Source of the DNA: Candidatus Parcubacteria bacterium | Lineage (GTDB): Bacteria; Patescibacteriota; Minisyncoccia; Phycocordibacterales; CAIZLB01 | Direction: 5' to 3' | NCBI GenBank assembly: GCA_043760135.1 | Contig: JAYUPL010000007.1 | Span: 64,106-128,105 of the forward strand | Length of the DNA: 64,000 nt | Part shown: one piece after another, positions 4,974 to 53,639 of the stretch | Position numbering within the stretch: position 1 is the stretch's first letter | Layout of the letters: each line of letters starts with the position of its first letter | Program-made: the position numbers and the translations under genes | The notes under the pieces: model-generated | What the model was told of the DNA's origin: nothing | The model's database searches: none | The model's input: only the letters and a program-made list of their open reading frames with translations

Positions 4974-5058
4974 TGGTGCTGAGAGAGGGACTTGAACCCT
5001 CACTAGGTTGCCCTGCGCGATTTTGAGTCGCGTGCGTCTACCATTCCGCCATCTCAGC
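4974..5058 (-). tRNA. tRNA-Leu(CAA), type II with long variable arm, CCA encoded
   Basis: Reverse complement: GCTGAGA TG GCGG AATGGTAGACGC...anticodon loop CTCAAAA...long arm...GGGTTCAAGTCCC...TCTCAGC ACCA. Confidence 0.85.
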
Positions 5059-11119: not shown

Positions 11120-11191
11120 TGACCCCACGGAGAGTCGAACTCCGCTTAACAGATTGAAAACCTGCTGTCCTAACCGATAGACGATGGGGCC
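11120..11191 (-). tRNA. tRNA-Glu(UUC)
   Basis: Reverse complement GGCCCCATCGTCTATCGGTTAGGACAGCAGGTTTTCAATCTG...GTTCGACTCTCCGTGGGGTCA; close match to the E. coli tRNA-Glu pattern; no encoded CCA. Confidence 0.85.
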
Positions 11192-22092: not shown

Positions 22093-23847
22093 ATGACCAA
22101 CCTAAATTTTTGTGGTAAAATCAGGGATATGCAAGACGAAAAGAAACAAAACGACATAACCTATTTTGGTGTTACTGATGCCCGTGGAAAACAAGTAAAA
22201 TTCGGTATCAGAAAAGAGGACCGTCTTCGTCATATGTATGCTATTGGTAAAACTGGTATGGGTAAATCAACTTTACTTGAAAATATGGCCATTCAAGACA
22301 TTCAAAATGGTGAAGGAATGGCTTTCCTCGACCCACACGGTAAAACCGCTGAATTGCTCTTAGAATTCGTTCCAGAGCATCGTATAAAGGACGTTATATA
22401 CTTTGCACCTTTTGATCTAGAGCACCCCGTAGCATTGAACGTGCTCGAAGATACAGCACTGGGAGATGAATCATCATCAAGTATTCGATCACAATTTATA
22501 GTGTCAGGTCTGATGTCAACCTTTAAGAAAATTTGGAAAGATCAATGGTCAGCTCGTATGGAGTATATTTTGAACTATACACTTTTAGCTTTATTGGAAA
22601 TTCCAGAAGCGACACTTTTGGACGTTAACCGTATGCTCTCAGATAAGACATTTCGTAAAGACGTGATTGATCGACTGAAAGAGCCAACTGTAAAAGCCTA
22701 TTGGGAAAAAGAATTTGCATCGATGACCGACAAGATGGTAGCCGAAGCTGTACCAGCTATTCAAAACAAAGTAGGACAATTTATTTCAAATGCTTTGATT
22801 AGAAATATTATAGGTCAAACAAAATCCTCATTCGATTTTAGACAAGCGATGGATGAGAAAAAAATAATTATTTTTAATCTTTCTATTGGACGTATAGGAG
22901 AAGATGCAGTAAACCTATTGGGATCTCTCTTTGTTACAAAAATATACCTTGCAGCCATGAGTCGTGCTGATATGACTGATAGAGAAATGAAGGACGTTCC
23001 AAACTTCTACTTGTACGTGGATGAGTTCCAAAATTTTATCAATGATTCATTTGCTCAGATTTTGTCTCAAGCTCGTAAGTACAAACTCGGACTTATTGTT
23101 GCGCACCAATATGTAAAGCAAATGTCTGAAATAGTTCATGATGCTATCTTTGGAAACGTCGGGACAATGATTGCGTATCGTATTGGTGCTGACGATGCCG
23201 ATGCATTTGAAAAAGAATTTAAACCAACTTTTTTACCTGAAGATTTTACAAACATTGGTCGTTTTCAAATGTATCTTAAACTTATGATTGATGGAGTAAC
23301 TTCGCCAGCTTTTTCTGCAACGGGTATGGGTCCATGGCCAGAACCAGAGCAAAGTTTTGTGAAAGAGATTATTGAATCATCACGTGCTCTTTATTCACAT
23401 CCAAGAAAAGATGTAGAGGCTCATATTTTAAAGTGGACATTGGGTGGAGATAGGGGCGGTAAAGCTGAGGGTTCTCAACCTAAACCAACAATAGATCAAC
23501 CAAGAAGAATGGAACAACCTCGAACTGAGCCAAGACGTGATGAAAGGCCACGAGAAATAAGTCGCGATCAAAATCGAGAGCCTCGAAGGGAACCTGTTCG
23601 AAATGAAATACGAAATGATAGACCAAGAACAGAATCAAGACCTCCTATGGATCGTCCTGTGCCATTGCATAACCCATTCAAAGTAGCTTTTAAAGAGATA
23701 GAAAAAGTTGATGAACCTGTTAAACAAAAAGAACCTGAAATCATTGATGTGACAAAAGTTCCAGAAATAACATTTGAACCAAAACTTGTAGAAAGAAAAG
23801 AGGTTGATGAGGATACTCTTAAAGACGTTTTAGGTTTGAAGGAGTAA
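22093..23847 (+). CDS. VirD4/TraG/TraD-like type IV coupling-protein ATPase (soluble) with R/E/P-rich low-complexity C-terminal tail
   Basis: Walker A GKTGMGKST; FLDPHG (DPKG-like); YVDEFQNF Walker B; tail RRDERPREISRDQNREPRREP. Confidence 0.5.
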   Translation: MTNLNFCGKIRDMQDEKKQNDITYFGVTDARGKQVKFGIRKEDRLRHMYAIGKTGMGKSTLLENMAIQDIQNGEGMAFLDPHGKTAELLLEFVPEHRIKDVIYFAPFDLEHPVALNVLEDTALGDESSSSIRSQFIVSGLMSTFKKIWKDQWSARMEYILNYTLLALLEIPEATLLDVNRMLSDKTFRKDVIDRLKEPTVKAYWEKEFASMTDKMVAEAVPAIQNKVGQFISNALIRNIIGQTKSSFDFRQAMDEKKIIIFNLSIGRIGEDAVNLLGSLFVTKIYLAAMSRADMTDREMKDVPNFYLYVDEFQNFINDSFAQILSQARKYKLGLIVAHQYVKQMSEIVHDAIFGNVGTMIAYRIGADDADAFEKEFKPTFLPEDFTNIGRFQMYLKLMIDGVTSPAFSATGMGPWPEPEQSFVKEIIESSRALYSHPRKDVEAHILKWTLGGDRGGKAEGSQPKPTIDQPRRMEQPRTEPRRDERPREISRDQNREPRREPVRNEIRNDRPRTESRPPMDRPVPLHNPFKVAFKEIEKVDEPVKQKEPEIIDVTKVPEITFEPKLVERKEVDEDTLKDVLGLKE

Positions 23848-29913: not shown

Positions 29914-30774
29914 TTATAAAATAATATTCTTATGGTTATCTTTATGCATAAACAAGAACATCCGTACACCTTTAGCTGGTGGATTATCTAGATCAAATTT
30001 CTTTAAGGTGCCATACTCGAGTATTTGAGTGCTGTATTCCAACGATTCGAGTAGTCTAATTGTTTCAGAAAAATTTTGGTTTTTGTATAGTCCATCACGC
30101 CCATCTTTTGTGTGACAAATTTCAACGAATAGTATTGGTTTATGTGTCTTTATGGAATCTAAGGCTCCTTTTAATACATCAAACTCAAATCCTTCAACGT
30201 CAATTTTAATAAAATTAATATGAGAAATCCCTTTTTCTTTTACAACATCATCCAGTCTTTTGATGGGGATGTTTAACTTATTCTCTGTATTCGTTGTGAA
30301 CTCTTTGATGAGAGTTGTGCCTGAACCAGCTGTATATATATCTATATTTCCGCTAGTTTCGCCTAATGCACATTCATTAATATCGACATTAGACAATCTA
30401 TTTAAATATACACTTTCTTTTATTGAATCGAAGTGAAGACTGATAGGCTCAAAGCTGTATGTTTTTGAATTTGGAAACATATAGGCTGACATTATTCCAT
30501 AATATCCGGTATTGGCACCTATATCTAGTAAGACAAAGTCAGATGAAAGTTGTGTCAGTATTTTTTGAACCAAAATGGTTTCTTCTTGCTCAACTACTCC
30601 GTTTGCTGCGATTCCATAAGCTATGTCGTTGATATCATACAGATTGCCACAATACCAAAAACCATCTTTTGATTTTACTGCGTGCGGATAGCTCAGGTTT
30701 GCTGTTGATATGAGTAGTATTTTTCTTTTTATTAAAATTCCTACAGCATTGATTAGTTTGTGTATTATTTTCAT
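29914..30774 (-). CDS. FkbM-family methyltransferase
   Basis: DIGANTGYY...FEP...IDFIKIDVEGFEFDVLKGA. Confidence 0.8.
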   Translation of the reverse strand: MKIIHKLINAVGILIKRKILLISTANLSYPHAVKSKDGFWYCGNLYDINDIAYGIAANGVVEQEETILVQKILTQLSSDFVLLDIGANTGYYGIMSAYMFPNSKTYSFEPISLHFDSIKESVYLNRLSNVDINECALGETSGNIDIYTAGSGTTLIKEFTTNTENKLNIPIKRLDDVVKEKGISHINFIKIDVEGFEFDVLKGALDSIKTHKPILFVEICHTKDGRDGLYKNQNFSETIRLLESLEYSTQILEYGTLKKFDLDNPPAKGVRMFLFMHKDNHKNIIL

Positions 30775-40990: not shown

Positions 40991-41066
40991 GCCAAGGTAG
41001 CTCAGTTGGTAGAGCATATCCCTGAAGAGGATGGGGTCGCCGGTTCGAGCCCGGCCCTTGGCACCA
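40991..41066 (+). tRNA. tRNA-Phe(GAA), CCA encoded
   Basis: GCCAAGGTAGCTCAGTTGGTAGAGC...anticodon loop CTGAAGA...GGTTCGAGCCCGG...CTTGGCACCA. Confidence 0.9.
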
Positions 41067-42330: not shown

Positions 42331-42353
42331 CTCACTATTGTTATTATTTTTTG

Positions 42354-42911
42354 ATGACCAAAATCATATACATCGATGAATCAGGAATAAGCTCTAAGAT
42401 GGGGCATAGTGTACACGTGTCTTTATATATTGAGTTTAACAACCGTTTAGATTTATCAAACGAAATTACAAAGATAGAAAAACAACTTAAAATATCATAT
42501 ACACAATGGACCGAAATGCCCTGGAAGTTAAGATTAAAATTTGCTGAAAAGATAAAAGACTTAGACTTTGAGGTAAAAGCACTTGTTTACAGTAATCCTA
42601 TTTTACCGGAAGCAGGTTTAAGGATATCGTTGTTTGAGTTTGCTAAAGATAGTGGTATAGCAAGTATTTTTATTGATGGAAAAAAGAATAAGGGTTATGA
42701 GAAAGAATTAAAGGCCTTATTACGAAATAGGGGGATAAAAGTGTATGATCTAAGAATAATTGATGATAAAAAGGAGTCGTTAATACGAATTGCAGACTTT
42801 ATGGCTGGATTAATAAGGTCTTATACAGATTTTTCAAATAAGTACAGTATATTCATCTTTAATCTGTTAAAAGACAAAATTGAAATAGATAAAGCAAAAA
42901 TGCCCGATTAA
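42354..42911 (+). CDS. DUF3800-family protein
   Basis: IYIDESG N-terminal motif...LIRIADFMAG; the track ORF starts at 42351 (TTG), ATG at 42354. Confidence 0.5.
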   Translation: MTKIIYIDESGISSKMGHSVHVSLYIEFNNRLDLSNEITKIEKQLKISYTQWTEMPWKLRLKFAEKIKDLDFEVKALVYSNPILPEAGLRISLFEFAKDSGIASIFIDGKKNKGYEKELKALLRNRGIKVYDLRIIDDKKESLIRIADFMAGLIRSYTDFSNKYSIFIFNLLKDKIEIDKAKMPD

Positions 42912-45095: not shown

Positions 45096-47585
45096 ATGCC
45101 AAAGTCGCGAATAAACCAAAATGACAACGAAAATACAGAGGAAGTTGAAATTATACCCCATCAGAACGTGATCCAGAGAAATATAGTAGACGAAATGGAG
45201 GAGTCATATATCGATTATGCCATGAGTGTTATTACCGACCGTGCTCTACCCGATATTCGCGACGGTCTAAAACCTGTACAAAGACGTATTTTGTTTGCTA
45301 TGAGTAGGTTAGGTCTTTTACCAACTGCTAAATTTCAAAAGTCAGCCAAAGTGGTCGGAGAAACTATGGGTAACTACCACCCTCACGGTGATGCTGCCAT
45401 CTATCAAACTATGGTGAATATGGTGCAAGATTTTAACATGAGATATCCTTTGATCTGGGGACAAGGAAACTTTGGTAACGTTGATGGATATCCTGCAGCG
45501 GCTTCTCGTTATACTGAAAGTAAATTAAATAAAATCACTCTAAACATTTTAGCCGATCTTGATAAAGACACAGTGGATTTTCGTCCAAACTATGACGGAA
45601 CAAGAAAAGAACCTTCTGTATTACCAACACAGATTCCAAACTTCCTATTAAATGGTACTTTAGGTATTGCTGTGGGTATGGCCACAAACATTCCTCCTCA
45701 CAACCTAAATGAAGTGATGGATGCAGTGAACCATCTTGTTGATAATCCTGACGCAACCGTTCTTGATTTGATGCAATTTATCAAAGGACCAGATTTTCCT
45801 ACAGGCGCCATTGCATTTAACCAAAAAGATATAGAACATGCATGTACCCATGGTCGTGGTGGTGTTGTTGTGCGTGGTGAAGCTGAAATAGTTGAGGAAA
45901 AAGCTGGACAATCAAAGATTGTGATCAACTCTATTCCTTATAGAGTAAATAAATCATCGCTTATAGAGGCTATAGCCGACCTTGTGCGTGATAAAAAGCT
46001 TGAGGGTATCAAAGATATCAGAGATGAGTCTACAAGTGATATACGTATCGTTATAGAGCTTAAGAACGGAATGTACCCACAAAACATCCTAAACTATTTG
46101 TATAAACATACTCAATTGGAATCAACATTTCACTATAACTTAGTTGCATTAGTTGATGGTGTGCCTCAAACTTTGTCTATTAAGTCAGCTCTTGAAAATT
46201 TTGTTGGACATAGAAAAACAGTTATCAGACGTAGAACTGAGTTTGATCTTAGAAAAGCTGAAGATCGCGAGCATATCTTGCTTGGATTGAAAAAAGCTCT
46301 GGACCATATCGATGAAATCATTGCTATTATCAAGAAAAGTAAAGATACACCAGCTGCTCATATTGCCTTGATGAAAGAGTTTAAGTTCTCTGATCGTCAA
46401 ACTACAGCTATTTTGGAAATGAAACTGGCTCGTCTTGCGTCTCTCGAAAGAAAGAAAATTGAAGATGAATTAAAAGCACTGCAAGAAATTATCAAAGACT
46501 TGAAAGATATTCTAAAGAATACTTCAAGAATCTTGACTATTATTAAAGATGAATCAAATGCGATCAAAGAAAAATTTGGTGATGAAAGACGAACTCGTAT
46601 TGTAAAAGGTGGTGTAGCCAACGTTGGTGTAGAAGATGTGATTCCAGATCAAGAGTCTGTGCTTGTATTAACTGCCGGCGGATACATCAAACGTACAAAT
46701 CCAGATGAATACAAAAAACAACGAAGAGGAGGTGTGGGTGTTGTTGATGTTGATGTAAAGGAGGAGGATTTCATAACTCATCTTGTATCAGCTACGATGC
46801 ATAACGAGCTATTATTCTTCACTGATAAAGGTAAAGCATATCAAATCAAAATGTATGATATTCCAGAAGGAAAACGTGCAACTCGTGGTAAATCAATCAT
46901 GAACTTCTTATCTCTAGCACAAGATGAAAAAGTTACATCAATTCTTCCAATGCCAAAAGAAGTTAAAAAAGTTGATGATATATCTTTGATGTTGATCACT
47001 AAACTTGGTACAGGAAAGCGTGTAAACTTGTCTTCTTTCCGTGATGTAAGACGAAGTGGGATTATTGCTATCTCACTTGATGACAGTGATAGTTTGATTT
47101 CAGCTTCTTTTGTAAATGAAAAAGATTCTATGATTTTAGTTGCAACTGATGCACAATCAATCAGATTCTCTATCAATGAAATACGTGAAATGGGTAGATC
47201 GGCCGGTGGTGTTCGTGCAATGAAGCTCGATAAAAATGTTTCTATTATTGGTGCTATTCCGGTTAAATTTGGTTCTAAAGATGATGCTGAACTCTTAACC
47301 GTTTCTGCAAATGGATATGGTAAAAAAACCTCACTTTCAGAATACAAGATCCAAGGACGTGGTGGATCAGGAATAAAAACTTTTAAAGTTACAAGTAAAA
47401 CCGGAGACCTTATTGCTTCACAAGTTGTAACTCCAGAGCTCGATGAGATTGTTGCAATCAGTAAAAAGAGTCAGGTGATTAGATGTGAATTGAAAGAGAT
47501 TCCAAATCTTGGACGCGATACACAAGGCGTAAGAGTTATGAAATTACGTGAAGGGGATAGTCTCGCATCAGTTATAGGGGTATAA
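45096..47585 (+). CDS. gyrA: DNA gyrase subunit A
   Basis: [21 protein letters not shown]...[13 protein letters not shown]...; C-terminal beta-pinwheel repeats. Confidence 0.9.
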
Positions 47586-47690
47586 TATTAATACCTCTAC
47601 GCAGAGCTCCGAGGTATTAATATTGTTAACTCCTCGGTTCGGAAATACATATGGTACATATGTATTTCGCTCACTCTACGTCGTTAATAA
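47586..47690 (+). repeat. Structured repeat X: hairpin 1 (TATTAATACCTC...GAGGTATTAATA), GTTAACTCCTCGGTTCGG, hairpin 2 (GAAATACATATG-gta-CATATGTATTTC), CGCTCACTCTACGTCGTTAATAA
   Basis: Same architecture and arm sequences as reverse-complemented 50961..51073; the hairpin sequences differ but the pairing is preserved. Confidence 0.7.
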
Positions 47691-47712
47691 ATAATAAACA
47701 AAACAAAATAAA

Positions 47713-49029
47713 ATGAGCTCATCCAAAGATTTAAATATATTTCAGGTTCTAACAATAATCGTATTTCTTATCGTTGGTATTATAGGTATAGCAATGTTTG
47801 CTACCGGAAAAGCTGGTATAGGTGGATCAAGTTATAAAGCGACTATTTGGGGAGTGTTGCCAAAAGCAAATATTGATGCAGGTTTAGAACCTTTTAGAAT
47901 CAGGGGACAAGATCCAAGTTTTACCTACATAGAATTTCCAGAACAGGGGTTTGAGCAGGCGATATTAAAAGCTATTGCTGAGGGTAATGGACCAGATGCA
48001 ATCATTTTCCCTGACTACATGTATTATGGTCAGATAAATAAGCTACTCACTATTCCAAATTCAACTGTAACTGCTGAGACTTTTGCGAATACGTATTTGG
48101 ATATAGCTCAAAAATTTACTGTTCAAGGCGGTATAAAAGCCTTTCCGATTCTGATTGATCCTTTGGTGATGTATTACAATGTTGATTTATTAAAATCTGA
48201 AGGAATTTTGATACCACCAAAAGATTGGGTTGAATTTGCAAACCTTACAGAAAAAGTGGTGCGTAAACAAGACAACGGTATTATAGATAGAGCATACACT
48301 GCTCTAGGTGAGTATGATAATATTGATCACGCTAAAGATATATTGTTTGCCATGCTTGCTCAAGTTGGTGTAAATCTATCTTTTTATGATGTTGGAATAG
48401 GGTCATATGCATCAGGTTTAGTAAGTCAAGAATCATCAAGTCGTCTATCTCGTGAAGTTATGATTTATTATACAGAATTCGCCAATCCGACAAAAACATC
48501 ATATACCTGGAACAAATCTTTTAAGTCATCAAGAGAAGCATTTTTGGCTGGAGATTTGGCGATTTATTTTGGTCCTGGATCTGAAGTTGAATACATGAGA
48601 ACTCGTAACCCAAATCTAAATTTTGCAATTGCTGCAATACCTCAAGCATATTCAGATAAAAAAGTTACCCAAGCTAAGATATATTCTTTAGGATTCATGG
48701 TTACTTCAAGAGATCCTAACGCAACCTATCAAAATGTGATGAGTTTTTTCAACACGTTTGAGATGAATAAATCACTTTCTGATTCTGTACGTCTTGCTTC
48801 AGCTCGTCGTGATGTATTATTAAAATCAGAATTAGCAAAAACTAATGCTGATGTGGCAGTGATAAATAATTCAGCGATATATGCCGAATCTTGGATCGAT
48901 CCTGATGCCTATGAAAGTGATGATGTGTTTTCTAAGATGATAAATTCAATAGTCACTGGTACTCAAAATATTTCTGATGCGATCAATGATGCTGCTGAAA
49001 GGTTAGATAGATTATATTTAATAAGATAA
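47713..49029 (+). CDS. Membrane-anchored extracellular solute-binding-protein-like protein (SBP_bac_1-like), orphan
   Basis: N-terminal TM; DPLVMYYNVDLLKSEGILIPPKDWVEF resembles MalE-type SBPs; no permease/ATPase nearby. Confidence 0.5.
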   Translation: MSSSKDLNIFQVLTIIVFLIVGIIGIAMFATGKAGIGGSSYKATIWGVLPKANIDAGLEPFRIRGQDPSFTYIEFPEQGFEQAILKAIAEGNGPDAIIFPDYMYYGQINKLLTIPNSTVTAETFANTYLDIAQKFTVQGGIKAFPILIDPLVMYYNVDLLKSEGILIPPKDWVEFANLTEKVVRKQDNGIIDRAYTALGEYDNIDHAKDILFAMLAQVGVNLSFYDVGIGSYASGLVSQESSSRLSREVMIYYTEFANPTKTSYTWNKSFKSSREAFLAGDLAIYFGPGSEVEYMRTRNPNLNFAIAAIPQAYSDKKVTQAKIYSLGFMVTSRDPNATYQNVMSFFNTFEMNKSLSDSVRLASARRDVLLKSELAKTNADVAVINNSAIYAESWIDPDAYESDDVFSKMINSIVTGTQNISDAINDAAERLDRLYLIR

Positions 49030-49046
49030 TATGATAATATAAACCT

Positions 49047-49391
49047 ATGGAATTATTTTCAAAACTAAATGCTTGTATGGGGACAAGTATACAGGCTCGA
49101 CAGAAAGGTGGTTGTGGATGGGCAGAGTTAGGTCCGATTATAAATGAGTTACTATCCAACATTTTACTTCTTGGTATTTTTATTGCAGTGATAATGATAA
49201 TGTATGCTGGTTATATACTAGTTAACGGTCAAGGTTCACCAGACTCTCGTAGTCGTGCTAAAAAAATATTTATAGGAATAGTGATTGGTATGATTTTACT
49301 TGTTGGATCATATTACATAGTTGAATTTGTATTGGATACATTGGGTGTAAGTAATGACTATAGAAACAATTCACTCATTAAAAGAAATTAA
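49047..49391 (+). CDS. Small two-helix membrane protein, TrbC/VirB2-pilin-like topology (paralog 1 of 5)
   Basis: TM1-loop(NGQGSPDSRSRAKK)-TM2 hairpin shared with the four following ORFs. Confidence 0.45.
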   Translation: MELFSKLNACMGTSIQARQKGGCGWAELGPIINELLSNILLLGIFIAVIMIMYAGYILVNGQGSPDSRSRAKKIFIGIVIGMILLVGSYYIVEFVLDTLGVSNDYRNNSLIKRN

Positions 49392-49406
49392 TATATAATT
49401 ATACAT

Positions 49407-49874
49407 ATGAAAAACATCAAGAAAATAGTAATCATGGTTATAATATCGGTAGTATCGTTTGGTTCTGTTAGTGTTTCGGCTCTAAGTCCCGACAGGCAGG
49501 CAGAGGTTGATGCTGCGGCTGCAAGAAATAATCCTACTACCAATAATCCATCAAATAATACATCAAACACAAACACCCCTGCTCGTCCACTATTGAATCC
49601 TCCTCTTGGAAATGGAACTGCTGGAGGATCTGATCTAAAAACAATCTTCTTAAATGTGCTCGATGTTACTCAAGTTATTATCATCATGGTTACAACTCTA
49701 TATCTTATATTGGCTGGTTTTATGTTTGTGACGGCAAAAGGAGATCCAGGAAAACTCAAAAAAGCCAGAGATGCATTACTTTGGGGTCTTATCGGTGCTG
49801 CTTTGATATTGTGTGCTGAGGTGTTGGCTTACGGTATAGGTGACACGGTTAAAGAAGTCTTTAAAGGAAAATAA
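49407..49874 (+). CDS. Small two-helix membrane protein, pilin-like (paralog 2 of 5), signal peptide plus N/T/P-rich region
   Basis: TAKGDPGKLKKARDALLWGLIGAALIL conserved hairpin. Confidence 0.45.
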   Translation: MKNIKKIVIMVIISVVSFGSVSVSALSPDRQAEVDAAAARNNPTTNNPSNNTSNTNTPARPLLNPPLGNGTAGGSDLKTIFLNVLDVTQVIIIMVTTLYLILAGFMFVTAKGDPGKLKKARDALLWGLIGAALILCAEVLAYGIGDTVKEVFKGK

Positions 49875-49904
49875 TTAAAATCATAAACTAATCAAAAAAA
49901 ATAT

Positions 49905-50459
49905 ATGAAAAAATTGGTAATACTAATAATGATGCTGATACTGAGTGTAGGAGTGAGTGCGGATACGACAAATTCAAACGGAGTAGGCGATGATACAAAT
50001 TCGAATGGAGTAGGTGATACAACCAACTCAAATGGTTTAGGAGATGACACTCCAAATGACTATGATCCAAAAGTAGATCCAAATTTCTATAAGGACGGGA
50101 CTCCAAAAAGTACAAGTAAGGCAGGTTTTGATCCATCAAATTTAAATAAAAATCCTTTTTCATCTGGATCTGAAGGGGTTCCAAAGCTTTCTTTGTTAGG
50201 TATAGTGTACTGGCTCGCAGGTTTGATGAATCAGTTGGTCTATTTGATTATTGGAGCATCACTTGTTTGTTTTTTATATGGAATATTTAAACTATCATTT
50301 GTAGATGGACAAAAACCAGAAGCTCGAGAGCAAGCACGAAAATTTATGTTCTGGGGAATCGTTTCTCTGTTTGTAATGATGTCAGTTTGGGGATTGGTTA
50401 ATATACTAAAACTTTCACTCTTCGGTCCTGGAGACTTGATTATACCAAGACTTAAGTAG
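49905..50459 (+). CDS. Small two-helix membrane protein, pilin-like (paralog 3 of 5), signal peptide plus TNSNGVGDD repeats
   Basis: VDGQKPEAREQARKFMFWGIVSLFVMMSVWGLVNIL. Confidence 0.45.
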   Translation: MKKLVILIMMLILSVGVSADTTNSNGVGDDTNSNGVGDTTNSNGLGDDTPNDYDPKVDPNFYKDGTPKSTSKAGFDPSNLNKNPFSSGSEGVPKLSLLGIVYWLAGLMNQLVYLIIGASLVCFLYGIFKLSFVDGQKPEAREQARKFMFWGIVSLFVMMSVWGLVNILKLSLFGPGDLIIPRLK

Positions 50460-50513
50460 TATAATATGTGCATCATTATAAATAATAAAAAATATTAAAA
50501 AACACTAAACAAA

Positions 50514-50906
50514 ATGAAAAAAATACTATCATTACTCATCACACTGTCACCAACAGTTTTACTGGCTAACGACGACCAAGCACCTATCGCAAGAACTGTT
50601 GATGGACTGCTTAACTGGCTTATATACATAGCTGGACGAGCACTACCTCTTCTTATTCTAGCTGCTCTTGTACTATTTTTGTTCGGTATAGTAAAAAGAT
50701 TCTTCTGGGCAAAAGATACAGCAGATAAAGGTGAAGCTGGAAGATATATATTGTGGGGTGTGGTTGCTTTGTTTGTTATGGTATCAGTTTGGGGACTTGT
50801 AAACGTTTTAAGAGGTTCATTTAATCTAGATAACAACAACGTGCCTCTCGCACCTGCTGTTCCTGTACAAAATGCTCCATATGCAGCTCCTACAACAAGA
50901 CCATAG
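50514..50906 (+). CDS. Small two-helix membrane protein, pilin-like (paralog 4 of 5)
   Basis: AKDTADKGEAGRYILWGVVALFVMVSVWGLVNVL. Confidence 0.45.
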   Translation: MKKILSLLITLSPTVLLANDDQAPIARTVDGLLNWLIYIAGRALPLLILAALVLFLFGIVKRFFWAKDTADKGEAGRYILWGVVALFVMVSVWGLVNVLRGSFNLDNNNVPLAPAVPVQNAPYAAPTTRP

Positions 50907-50960
50907 GTCTCTCTAATGTTAGTTATAAAAAGATTTGCGGTTCATAGCCTCAAGTCTTTT

Positions 50961-51073
50961 TTTGTTATTAACGACCGTTGGGTGAGTGAAATGAACGTGT
51001 TAGCACTTTCATTTCCGAACTGAGGAGTTAACATGATTACCACCTGGATGCTTTGCGTCGAGAAGGTAATCAT
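50961..51073 (-). repeat. Structured repeat Y (inverted copy of X): TTATTAACGACCGTTGGGTGAGTG, hairpin (GAAATGAA...TTCATTTC), CCGAACTGAGGAGTTAAC, hairpin (ATGATTACC...GGTAATCAT)
   Basis: Arms match the reverse complement of 47625..47690. Confidence 0.7.
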
Positions 51074-51080
51074 TATATAA

Positions 51081-51386
51081 TTGTTCTATATGCAAAAAGT
51101 CTATTCAATAATATCTAAGATCAATGATATTATTATTAATCCTATTATCCTCCTTTTGTTTTCAGTAGCGCTACTTTATTTTATGTTTGGAGTGTTTGAG
51201 TACATATGGAAATCGAGATCAGATCCAGGAAAAATTAAAGAAGGTAGATCTCATATGGGTTGGGGATTGTTCGGGATGTTTATTATGATTTCAGTTTTTG
51301 GTTTATTTAAAATTTTGCTGAATACTGTACCGGTGAGTGAGAGAACTAAAACAAATGTGAATAGGGTAATGGATCTCGATAAATAA
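51081..51386 (+). CDS. Small two-helix membrane protein, pilin-like (paralog 5 of 5), outside the X/Y-bracketed segment
   Basis: WKSRSDPGKIKEGRSHMGWGLFGMFIMISVFGLFKIL. Confidence 0.45.
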   Translation: MFYMQKVYSIISKINDIIINPIILLLFSVALLYFMFGVFEYIWKSRSDPGKIKEGRSHMGWGLFGMFIMISVFGLFKILLNTVPVSERTKTNVNRVMDLDK

Positions 51387-53367: not shown

Positions 53368-53452
53368 TGGTGGGCAAGGAGGGACTCGAACCCTCAATCC
53401 GTGAAGAACTAGTTCCTAAGACTAGCGCGTATACCAATTCCGCCACTTGCCC
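53368..53452 (-). tRNA. tRNA-Leu(UAG), type II, CCA encoded
   Basis: Reverse complement GGGCAAG TG GCGG AATTGGTATACGC...loop CTTAGGA...long arm...GGTTCGAGTCCC..CTTGCCC ACCA. Confidence 0.85.
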
Positions 53453-53466
53453 AACTTCCTAACTTG

Positions 53467-53539
53467 TCCGCCTAATAGGATTTGAACCTATGACCGTTCG
53501 CTTAAGAGGCGACTGCTCTACCAACTGAGCTATAGGCGG
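53467..53539 (-). tRNA. tRNA-Lys(CUU) with C1:G72 acceptor pair
   Basis: Reverse complement CCGCCTA TA GCTCAGTTGGTAGAGC AGTCGCCTCTTAAGCGAAC GGTC ATAGGTTCAAATCCTAT TAGGCGG A; parallels E. coli tRNA-Lys. Confidence 0.8.
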
Positions 53540-53566
53540 TTATATGTATTCAATTCTAATAAGCTG

Positions 53567-53639
53567 TGGACCCGAGGGGATTCGAACTCCTGACCTCCTC
53601 AGTGCAAATGAGGCGCTCTACCAACTAAGCTACGGGCCC
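53567..53639 (-). tRNA. tRNA-Ala(UGC) with G3:U70
   Basis: Reverse complement GGGCCCG TA GCTTAGTTGGTAGAGC GCCTCATTTGCACTGAGG AGGTC AGGAGTTCGAATCCCCT CGGGTCC A. Confidence 0.85.

Follow-up and report, generated by a model that had tools for sequence, protein, structure and literature searches.

The 64,000-nucleotide stretch analyzed here (the window; positions 64,106–128,105 of contig JAYUPL010000007.1, Candidatus Parcubacteria assembly GCA_043760135.1) contains two short structured elements, X (~47584–47690, + strand) and Y (~50965–51073, − strand), which flank a solute-binding protein (SBP) gene and four pilin-like genes in inverted orientation. X and Y belong to a family of the Candidate Phyla Radiation (CPR; Patescibacteria) that is present in many copies at scattered sites. 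It has been amplified in some genomes, its structure is under constraint, and copies have been gained or lost at orthologous sites. On balance, we favor reading this family as a new mobile, modular, structured intergenic repeat of CPR, comparable to the repetitive extragenic palindromic (REP) and enterobacterial repetitive intergenic consensus (ERIC) sequences, with X and Y as resident copies. An initial annotation of this DNA had suggested that the two elements could be recombination sites or the ends of a miniature transposable element with inverted repeats (MITE), and that the enclosed 3.3 kb could be invertible or mobile. We are instead highly confident that X and Y represent separate, independent members of a dispersed family, not the marks of an inversion or a mobile cassette; their inverted layout around the SBP–pilin block is coincidental.

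Element X comprises an accessory left module, hairpin 1 (47584–47624, +; arms AATATTAATACCTC and GAGGTATTAATATT), and a core (47624–47690, +) that scores 85.2 bits against the covariance model of the family. Structure and covariation analysis resolves this core into a closing helix P1 (47624–47630 with 47683–47689), a mini-helix (47636–47638 with 47673–47675), and a helix P2 (47642–47653 with 47657–47668), with the invariant internal loops TCCTC and CTACGTC identified by structure analysis. The 5′ end of X lies inside the gyrA stop codon and its 3′ end is 22 nt ahead of the SBP gene start; a TATAAT at 47581–47586 precedes X and overlaps the same stop codon. Element Y, on the − strand, comprises a core (50965–51033; 77.2 bits) that has same-site copies in the relatives L053 and L055, with P1 (51027–51033 with 50966–50972) assigned by model match and alignment, P2 within 50988–51015 containing one mismatch, and a hairpin 1 at 51033–51073 (ATGATTACC...GGTAATCAT). 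Y carries the tag CAAC in place of CTAC and a 1-nt insertion. Beside it, the sequence ATTATATAAT at 51072–51081 forms a perfect palindrome, the first two bases of which are Y's own, and which could serve as a −10 box in both directions, toward the fifth pilin gene and into Y.

The presence of two homologous structured copies at these places, as initially annotated, is borne out by arm search, alignment, model scores, and fold z-scores. The arm GTTAACTCCTC(G/A)GTTCGG occurs exactly twice in the 64 kb, at 47625–47642 (+) and 51015–51032 (−), against 0.02 occurrences expected from shuffles, and a second arm is likewise common to X and Y, with a 1-nt indel in Y. These conserved arms do not form single-stranded tails; pairing of GTTAAC with GTTAAT closes the structure. 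X and reverse-complemented Y are 81% identical over a 159-column alignment with flanks included and 71.6% identical as full elements with gaps counted, with a longest unbroken identical run of ~12 nt; under the family model their E values are ~1e-19 to 1e-22. Folding energies relative to shuffled controls give z = −4.8 for X and z = −3.8 for Y, and z-scores from −3.8 to −5.0 when either strand is considered. While the initial annotation located both elements correctly, their limits are those given above, and its stem lengths held only in part: the 9-bp outer pairing of Y stem 1 stands (nine perfect outer pairs inside 19-nt arms that are 79% complementary), but X stem 1 is a perfect 14-bp helix (47584–47597 with 47611–47624) and not 12 bp, and stem 2, which is 12 bp in X, is also 12 bp in Y, with one A/G mismatch, and not 8 bp. 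No third copy was found in the window by the covariance model, even with filters off. A match at 30586–30637 (+; 16.3 bits, E 0.07) was judged to be due to chance; it lacks P2 and lies inside an FkbM-type methyltransferase gene.

Beyond the window, a strict core pattern matched at 22 loci when applied to GTDB contigs (one genome per species) and at 29 in metagenomes, the latter with record names that point to sources including groundwater and marine sediment. A covariance model built from 35 distinct copies of the 72-nt core then recovered 66 copies of 72–170 nt, 59 of them distinct, from 385 kb of Patescibacteria DNA. The metagenome-assembled genome (MAG) Candidatus Parcubacteria GFS_112 alone holds 20 copies on 15 contigs, several less than 100 nt from a contig end, with almost identical cores and unrelated flanks; this is the signature of a recently amplified, assembly-breaking repeat. 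Other host labels are Saccharibacteria, Nomurabacteria, and Paceibacteria, together with a single MAG labeled Gammaproteobacteria, which is probably mis-binned. The copy in question is on contig CAYNJS010000046.1 (L018) of that MAG. Similarly, one protein on the L053 contig (GCA_014378965.1, JACMMR010000022.1) is named ‘Arenimonas sp.’ by NCBI, and this contig is gene-for-gene syntenic with the window. Both contigs probably come from CPR and were mis-binned into proteobacterial MAGs.

The family appears to be undescribed. With Rfam 15, only tRNAs in the window exceeded the gathering score, and at E values up to 10 no meaningful overlap with the element was obtained in the window and six other loci, only chance matches. 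Phage and plasmid collections gave no match to X by BLASTN; among viral contigs, the strict pattern was absent and a looser pattern returned only two GC-rich chance matches of 12–18 bits. Literature searches by sequence string, CPR structured RNA, and CPR repeats found no description of the element. An origin from a 5S rRNA-like or tRNA-like molecule was also considered, CCGAAC(C/U)GAGGAG resembling 5S loop C, and was set aside for want of Rfam support.

The universal unit of the family is the 72-nt core, a single strand of which folds into a long imperfect hairpin. Read on the strand used in the initial annotation, it runs from the 5′ side of the 7-bp P1 (TGTTAAC/TATAAAC) through UCCUC-GGU-UC-G, P2, and N-C-UC-ACU-CUACGUC to the 3′ side of P1 (GTTAATA/GTTTATA), so that the inner end of P1 is AAC/GTT. 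A near-invariant CUCCUC stands opposite CUACGUC in an internal loop, followed by a 3-bp mini-helix (GGU/ACU) and then by P2, which comprises 12 bp of free sequence and a variable loop. In all lineages, the loop sequences show little or no variation. Within them, a near-invariant CTACGTCG presents GTAG beside the imperfect stem on one strand and CGTC on the other.

Covariation supports this fold. Among the 59 distinct copies, standard pairs occupy 92.9% of cells, compared with 79.6% in column shuffles, and 17 of the 23 core pairs have changed on both sides, in keeping with the earlier suggestion of a functional-looking structured element with compensatory stem changes. The two checks put forward in the initial annotation, for further copies and for covariation, gave the 66 copies described above and a covariation score of 0.392, compared with 0.158 for shuffled alignments and at most 0.108 with partners slid. 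Most of the signal comes from P2 (double changes at 11 of 12 pairs). In P1, columns 5–89 and 6–88 covary, with U-A, A-U, and C-G variants. The proposed mini-helix is supported by pair 18–74, which is U-A in 54 copies and has become C-G in three.

Attached to one side of the core is hairpin 1 (consensus (A)ATGAATACC...GGTATT), a lineage-specific accessory module that is present in a short form in 22 of the 66 copies and in a long form with two further hairpins in 11; the remaining 33 have no upstream module or a different one. The ends of the element, (A)ATGAATACC on the left and CGTTAATAA(A) on the right, are not inverted repeats of each other, and the sole inverted pair, the 7-bp P1, is internal to the unit where hairpin 1 is present. 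Head-to-tail tandem copies were found at three loci (L037, L040, and L051), all others being singletons. Hairpin 1 is missing from the tandem cores at L037 (560–755) and L040 (1001–1154). In the second copy at L037 the loops are altered (GCCUCAA and GUUCGUG), with two of the proposed loop–loop pairs kept by compensatory changes.

Every copy is intergenic. The neighboring genes are unrelated to one another, with housekeeping or envelope functions, and orientation relative to them is balanced at 53 same and 55 opposite in total (30 and 22 for the upstream neighbor, 23 and 33 for the downstream neighbor). The spacers are convergent in 14 cases, co-directional in 23, and divergent in six. A 5′-UTR riboswitch or leader was rejected on the basis that orientation to downstream genes is random. 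About one-quarter to one-third of copies have a terminator-like hairpin within the ~30 nt that come after them, compared with 11% of random, mostly coding windows; this ~2–3-fold adjacency is suggestive only. No convincing internal promoter was found on reading the copies, and the upstream sequence is not conserved. No target-site duplication was detected at the filled and empty X and Y sites or in the GFS_112 flanks. A TA duplication was tried and discarded; at Y it requires a mismatch, and the GFS_112 left flanks contradict it. The flanks contain no conserved target in either orientation and no fixed 5′ tetra- or pentanucleotide. A gene for a REP-associated tyrosine transposase (RAYT) was not seen in the 0.5 Mb of DNA examined.

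Turning to the history of X and Y, eight syntenic relatives were reached through homologs of the SBP. The gene order tsaD–gyrA–SBP–four pilins–fifth pilin is the same in all eight and is never inverted, independent assemblies included. The elements themselves come and go. Both are present in the window and in L052, another assembly of the same genome (SBP identity 100%); Y without X occurs in L053/L054 (88%) and L055/L056 (82%), and X without Y in L060 (83%); neither is present in L057–L059 (88%), L063 (79%), or L061 (78%); and L062 (77%) lacks X and retains at the Y site a 36-nt relic with both element ends. All four presence states therefore occur, with clean junctions and in independent assemblies. 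An empty Y site reads ...GTCTTTTTTTGG joined directly to TATATAAT..., and a filled site reads ...GTCTTTTTTTG, then the element, then TATATAAT...; from this comparison, Y lies exactly between the host terminator and the −10-like box. The relic in L062 (GCA_041752275.1, 7305–7407; TTATTAAC ... GCTTCGAGTTGAAATTCAT) reflects deletion of internal sequence, not a clean excision. Gene trees are star-like, and gyrA DNA identity is 79–86%. For Y, one gain, one loss, and one decay can suffice, whereas X needs either two same-site gains or one gain with at least two losses. On either account, X and Y represent separate events and do not form a unit.

These comparisons dispose of the 3.3-kb invertible or mobile segment: X and Y vary independently in the eight relatives, the gene order is never inverted, and none of the 39 open reading frames (ORFs) scanned in the window, including every ORF from 41.7 to 53.2 kb, contains a recombinase, transposase, or integrase domain. 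Nor are X and Y MITE ends, each being a small repeat that is complete in itself. The SBP–pilin cluster of the window is accordingly neither phase-variable nor a mobile cassette. In two relatives recorded as lacking X, L055 (5926–6001) and L061 (9931–10001), the gyrA–SBP spacer is ~70 nt long and contains two TATAAT boxes. It starts with AATGAGTAT in L055 and TGAGTAT in L061, recalling the left end of the element (AATGAATACC). The covariance model found no match in either spacer; such a spacer could hold a promoter for the SBP gene or the remains of a decayed element.

Where the same site is occupied in different genomes, the copies are well conserved. Four-fold degenerate sites of gyrA and the SBP gene show 41–55% identity between genomes, which is near saturation, and non-element spacer DNA is hardly alignable between relatives. 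By comparison, the X copies of the window and L060 share 89.6% identity, and the Y copy of the window is 86.2% identical to that of L053 and 76.1% identical to that of L055, giving a same-site range of 76–86% among these three. The identity of X to Y (71.6%) is lower than these values, which argues that same-site copies are orthologous and were not inserted repeatedly from a local pool of homogeneous copies. The differences are often compensatory: a pair in X hairpin 1 reads U-A in the window where L060 has C-G, Y P2 shows two double changes between the window and L055, and X P2 shows one double and one half change between the window and L060. Judged from these alignments, same-site conservation points to constraint or renewal, for which purifying selection, conversion from other copies, and palindrome-templated repair are possible causes. 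Decay of copies also occurs, as indicated by the damaged 3′ loop of the L053 copy and the loss of most of the element in L062.

We propose that the family spread, at present or in the past, as a non-autonomous element mobilized in trans. The mobilizing protein would read the folded hairpin together with the invariant loop bases, in a system that would resemble REP/RAYT or other hairpin-dependent systems lacking inverted ends or target duplication. Resident copies would be under structural constraint, probably through co-transcription with neighboring genes, and would act as 3′-end or intercistronic RNA hairpins in the manner of REP and ERIC. In E. coli, REPs placed after stop codons modulate the stability or translation of the upstream mRNA; by analogy, the position of X, directly behind the gyrA stop codon and ahead of the SBP–pilin genes, would match known REP placement.

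Several observations weigh against this proposal. Mobility can only be inferred, since the family lacks terminal inverted repeats, target duplication, and a conserved target. An all-against-all BLASTP of the ORFs of 51 loci revealed no recurrent neighbor or autonomous parent, barring spurious ORFs across the repeat, and tblastn for an IS608-like TnpA was null in 0.5 Mb, a weak test in that the query was approximate. Some of the presence/absence pattern can be accounted for by ordinary deletion, and strong same-site conservation is not expected of a purely selfish, decaying element. The strand is also at issue: on the strand of the initial annotation, P2 contains 15 A·C and 5 G·U oppositions, favoring the opposite strand, which also folds better in 54 of 57 distinct cores, by a mean of 4.9 kcal/mol, although this bias derives partly from common purine-rich loops and does not amount to 54 independent tests. 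Positions 3–91 and 8–86 likewise favor the opposite strand, whereas pairs 16–76 (G·U in 43 copies) and 4–90 (G·U in 27) favor the strand initially read. With signals contradictory between positions, a strand call from G·U and A·C counts was abandoned. A small ORF on the opposite strand (in Y, GAGGAG-N5-ATG, 15 codons) was also dismissed; it is not kept in L053 or in the other copies read.

A different account, possible but in our view unlikely, is that the core is a host-selected structured RNA, either a small RNA gene family or a cis-acting 3′-UTR or intercistronic module, whose copies arose by duplication. Its C/U-rich loops (CUCCUC and CUCACUCUAC) would then bind a conserved CPR protein or a G-rich RNA, such as the Shine–Dalgarno sequence. 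Such an RNA would fit the covariation in all helices, the near-invariance of the loops across MAGs labeled Parcubacteria, Paceibacteria, Nomurabacteria, and Saccharibacteria, the compensatory changes and a same-site conservation far above that of saturated four-fold sites, the terminator-like hairpins that follow copies more often than random windows, and the prevalence of G·U at 16–76 and 4–90. However, random orientation would leave half of the copies antisense to read-through transcripts, and there is neither conserved upstream sequence nor a convincing internal promoter in the copies read. Moreover, the 20 near-identical GFS_112 copies, with their unrelated flanks and assembly breaks, look like a recent burst rather than a family of genes, and close relatives manage without X, Y, or both. 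By analogy with REP and ERIC, which are both repeats and RNA elements, this account would be compatible with the mobile repeat that we favor. We also entertain, tentatively and without much expectation, that the core represents a new class of functional folded nucleic-acid motif, host-selected across CPR. Possibly, this could take the form of a structured RNA with the invariant loops as a putative protein-binding or catalytic site; another possible form is the recognition hairpin of a CPR-specific mobilization system that operates without inverted ends, target duplication, or strand bias.

The other explanations invoke known recombination systems. The lack of inverted ends and target duplication, the clean empty sites, and, in the X/Y form, hairpins near both ends recall IS200/IS605-type miniatures (palindrome-associated transposable elements, PATEs), which have subterminal hairpins and are moved as single-stranded DNA, with precise excision, by a Y1 HUH transposase. 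We nevertheless consider this assignment quite improbable: the sequences of hairpin 1 and P2 show no relationship and hairpin 1 is missing from 33 of 66 copies, neither orientation shows a fixed 5′ tetra- or pentanucleotide in the flanks, X and Y are opposed within 3.3 kb and the 53:55 orientation relative to genes reveals no strand bias, the L062 relic resembles an ordinary deletion, and no TnpA-like ORF turned up in the DNA examined, weak as that test was. Still less credible is the idea that X and Y are paired recombination sites between which the 3.3-kb SBP–pilin block inverts, as in phase variation, or with which it moves as a unit. It draws on the inverted pair (72–81% identical) flanking surface-protein-like genes, but X and Y occur independently, the orientation and neighbors of the block are constant in the eight relatives and in independent assemblies, the scanned window ORFs include no recombinase domain, and the same element stands alone at dozens of unrelated sites. 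In addition, the longest identical run is ~12 nt, and identity of this length is too short for RecA-driven inversion. We give as little credence to an integron-type attC or another folded single-strand recombination site. The imperfect hairpin with AAC...GTT at the inner end of its closing helix recalls the R″ and R′ boxes of attC (RYYYAAC and GTTRRRY), but the rest of the boxes misfit (TGTTAAC/TATAAAC and GTTAATA/GTTTATA). While attC conserves structure and not sequence, the internal loops here are sequence-invariant, and the copies are singletons in both orientations among housekeeping genes and not same-orientation cassette arrays; the window ORFs scanned contain no integrase.

CPR genomes are ~1 Mb in size, streamlined, and generally held to be poor in repeats and mobile DNA. 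A family that spans several CPR lineage labels, reaches at least 20 copies in one MAG, and retains 76–90% same-site identity despite saturated synonymous sites is unusual, as is the pattern of invariant loops with free helices. For CPR MAGs, the repeat offers a new marker and a source of assembly breaks. It may also regulate mRNA 3′ ends or operon polarity, in organisms for which few regulators are known, and it gives a starting point in the search for the protein that would read it.

The window itself is a chromosomal segment of a Parcubacteria/Paceibacteria-like member of CPR, its nearest recovered relatives bearing the labels Candidatus Parcubacteria and Paceibacteria; the 39 ORFs scanned include gyrA, secA, mreB, rpoA, ribosomal protein genes, and a glycosyltransferase cluster. 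The genes flanking or enclosed by the elements are on the + strand and do not form part of them. The gyrA gene (45096–47585; Pfam DNA_topoisoIV and DNA_gyraseA_C) flanks X. Enclosed by X and Y are the SBP gene (47713–49029; Pfam SBP_bac_8 and SBP_bac_1) and four tandem small genes resembling type IV secretion system pilins (49047–50906; PF18895 in all four). The terminator-like hairpin of the fourth pilin gene, with its T-run (50931–50963, +), which Y abuts, belongs to the host and is kept in relatives without Y. On the other side of Y, the comparison of empty and filled sites defines the −10-like TATATAAT box (51074–51081, +), ahead of the fifth pilin-like gene (51090–51386; weak Pfam match). 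The cluster of the SBP and five pilin-like genes, kept in all eight relatives, may relate to a CPR type IV secretion system; a gene for a VirD4/TraG-like coupling protein is located at 22093–23847, 25 kb upstream of the pilin cluster. Six tRNA genes are found at 53371–53639 (−), 40991–41063 (+), 4977–5058 (−), and 11120–11191 (−); three of them are clustered ~2.3 kb downstream of Y, and none adjoins X or Y. Finally, a DUF3800 gene (42351–42911) between the HSP20 and PrsW genes is present in the window and in L055/L056 but not there in L057, L060, and L063, and constitutes a second presence/absence polymorphism near X and Y.

Among known systems, several resemble the CPR repeat in part only. 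Like MITEs such as Correia and RUP elements, it is small, non-coding, dispersed, and presence/absence polymorphic. MITEs have terminal inverted repeats matching a parent insertion sequence, together with a target-site duplication; the CPR repeat has neither, and a classical MITE was rejected on this ground. Assignment as a PATE fails on dissimilar hairpins, the lack of a fixed target, and the lack of strand bias. In the case of attC, only AAC...GTT fits, the loops being sequence-invariant and the copies scattered. An invertible segment has the inverted repeats in its favor, but there is no recombinase domain, only one orientation was found, and X and Y occur independently of each other. The BIME elements of E. 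coli and the BOX elements of Streptococcus pneumoniae share with the CPR repeat a constant unit, optional modules, and tandem occurrence; however, the sequences are unrelated, and the BIME and BOX modules lack a covarying helix closing invariant loops.

The likeness to ERIC (also called IRU; 127 bp) extends to size and distribution. Both are imperfect palindromes, of ~100 nt in CPR, that are strongly conserved between species, restricted to intergenic DNA (transcribed for ERIC, probably so in CPR) in either orientation, present in few to many copies per genome, variable in size through internal modules, and present or absent at orthologous sites. They differ in that the two share no sequence similarity and reside in different host phyla, and that ERIC is conserved over its whole length whereas the CPR repeat combines a free helix with invariant loops.

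The REP unit is described as a palindrome of 20–40 nt, one end of which bears an unpaired tag, GTAG or CGTC, and GTAG- and CGTC-tagged super-families exist, including REPINs mobilized by RAYT (PMC3733652). The CPR repeat departs from this description in its 72-nt core, its extra closing helix, its long invariant loops, its AT-richness, and its accessory hairpin modules, and, whereas REPs mostly form inverted dimers (HH or TT; REPINs), its copies are singletons or head-to-tail tandems. In other respects the two agree. The CPR repeat is likewise extragenic, multicopy, and hairpin-forming, its sub-families differ by complementary stem changes, its copies prefer the 3′ sides of genes (14 convergent and 6 divergent spacers), and it has neither inverted ends nor target duplication. 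The strand initially read carries CGTC, recalling CGTC-tagged REPs, and the better-folding strand carries, in the manner of GTAG-tagged REPs, a near-invariant GTAG directly 5′ of the imperfect stem; on this strand, G·T exceeds A·C in P2.

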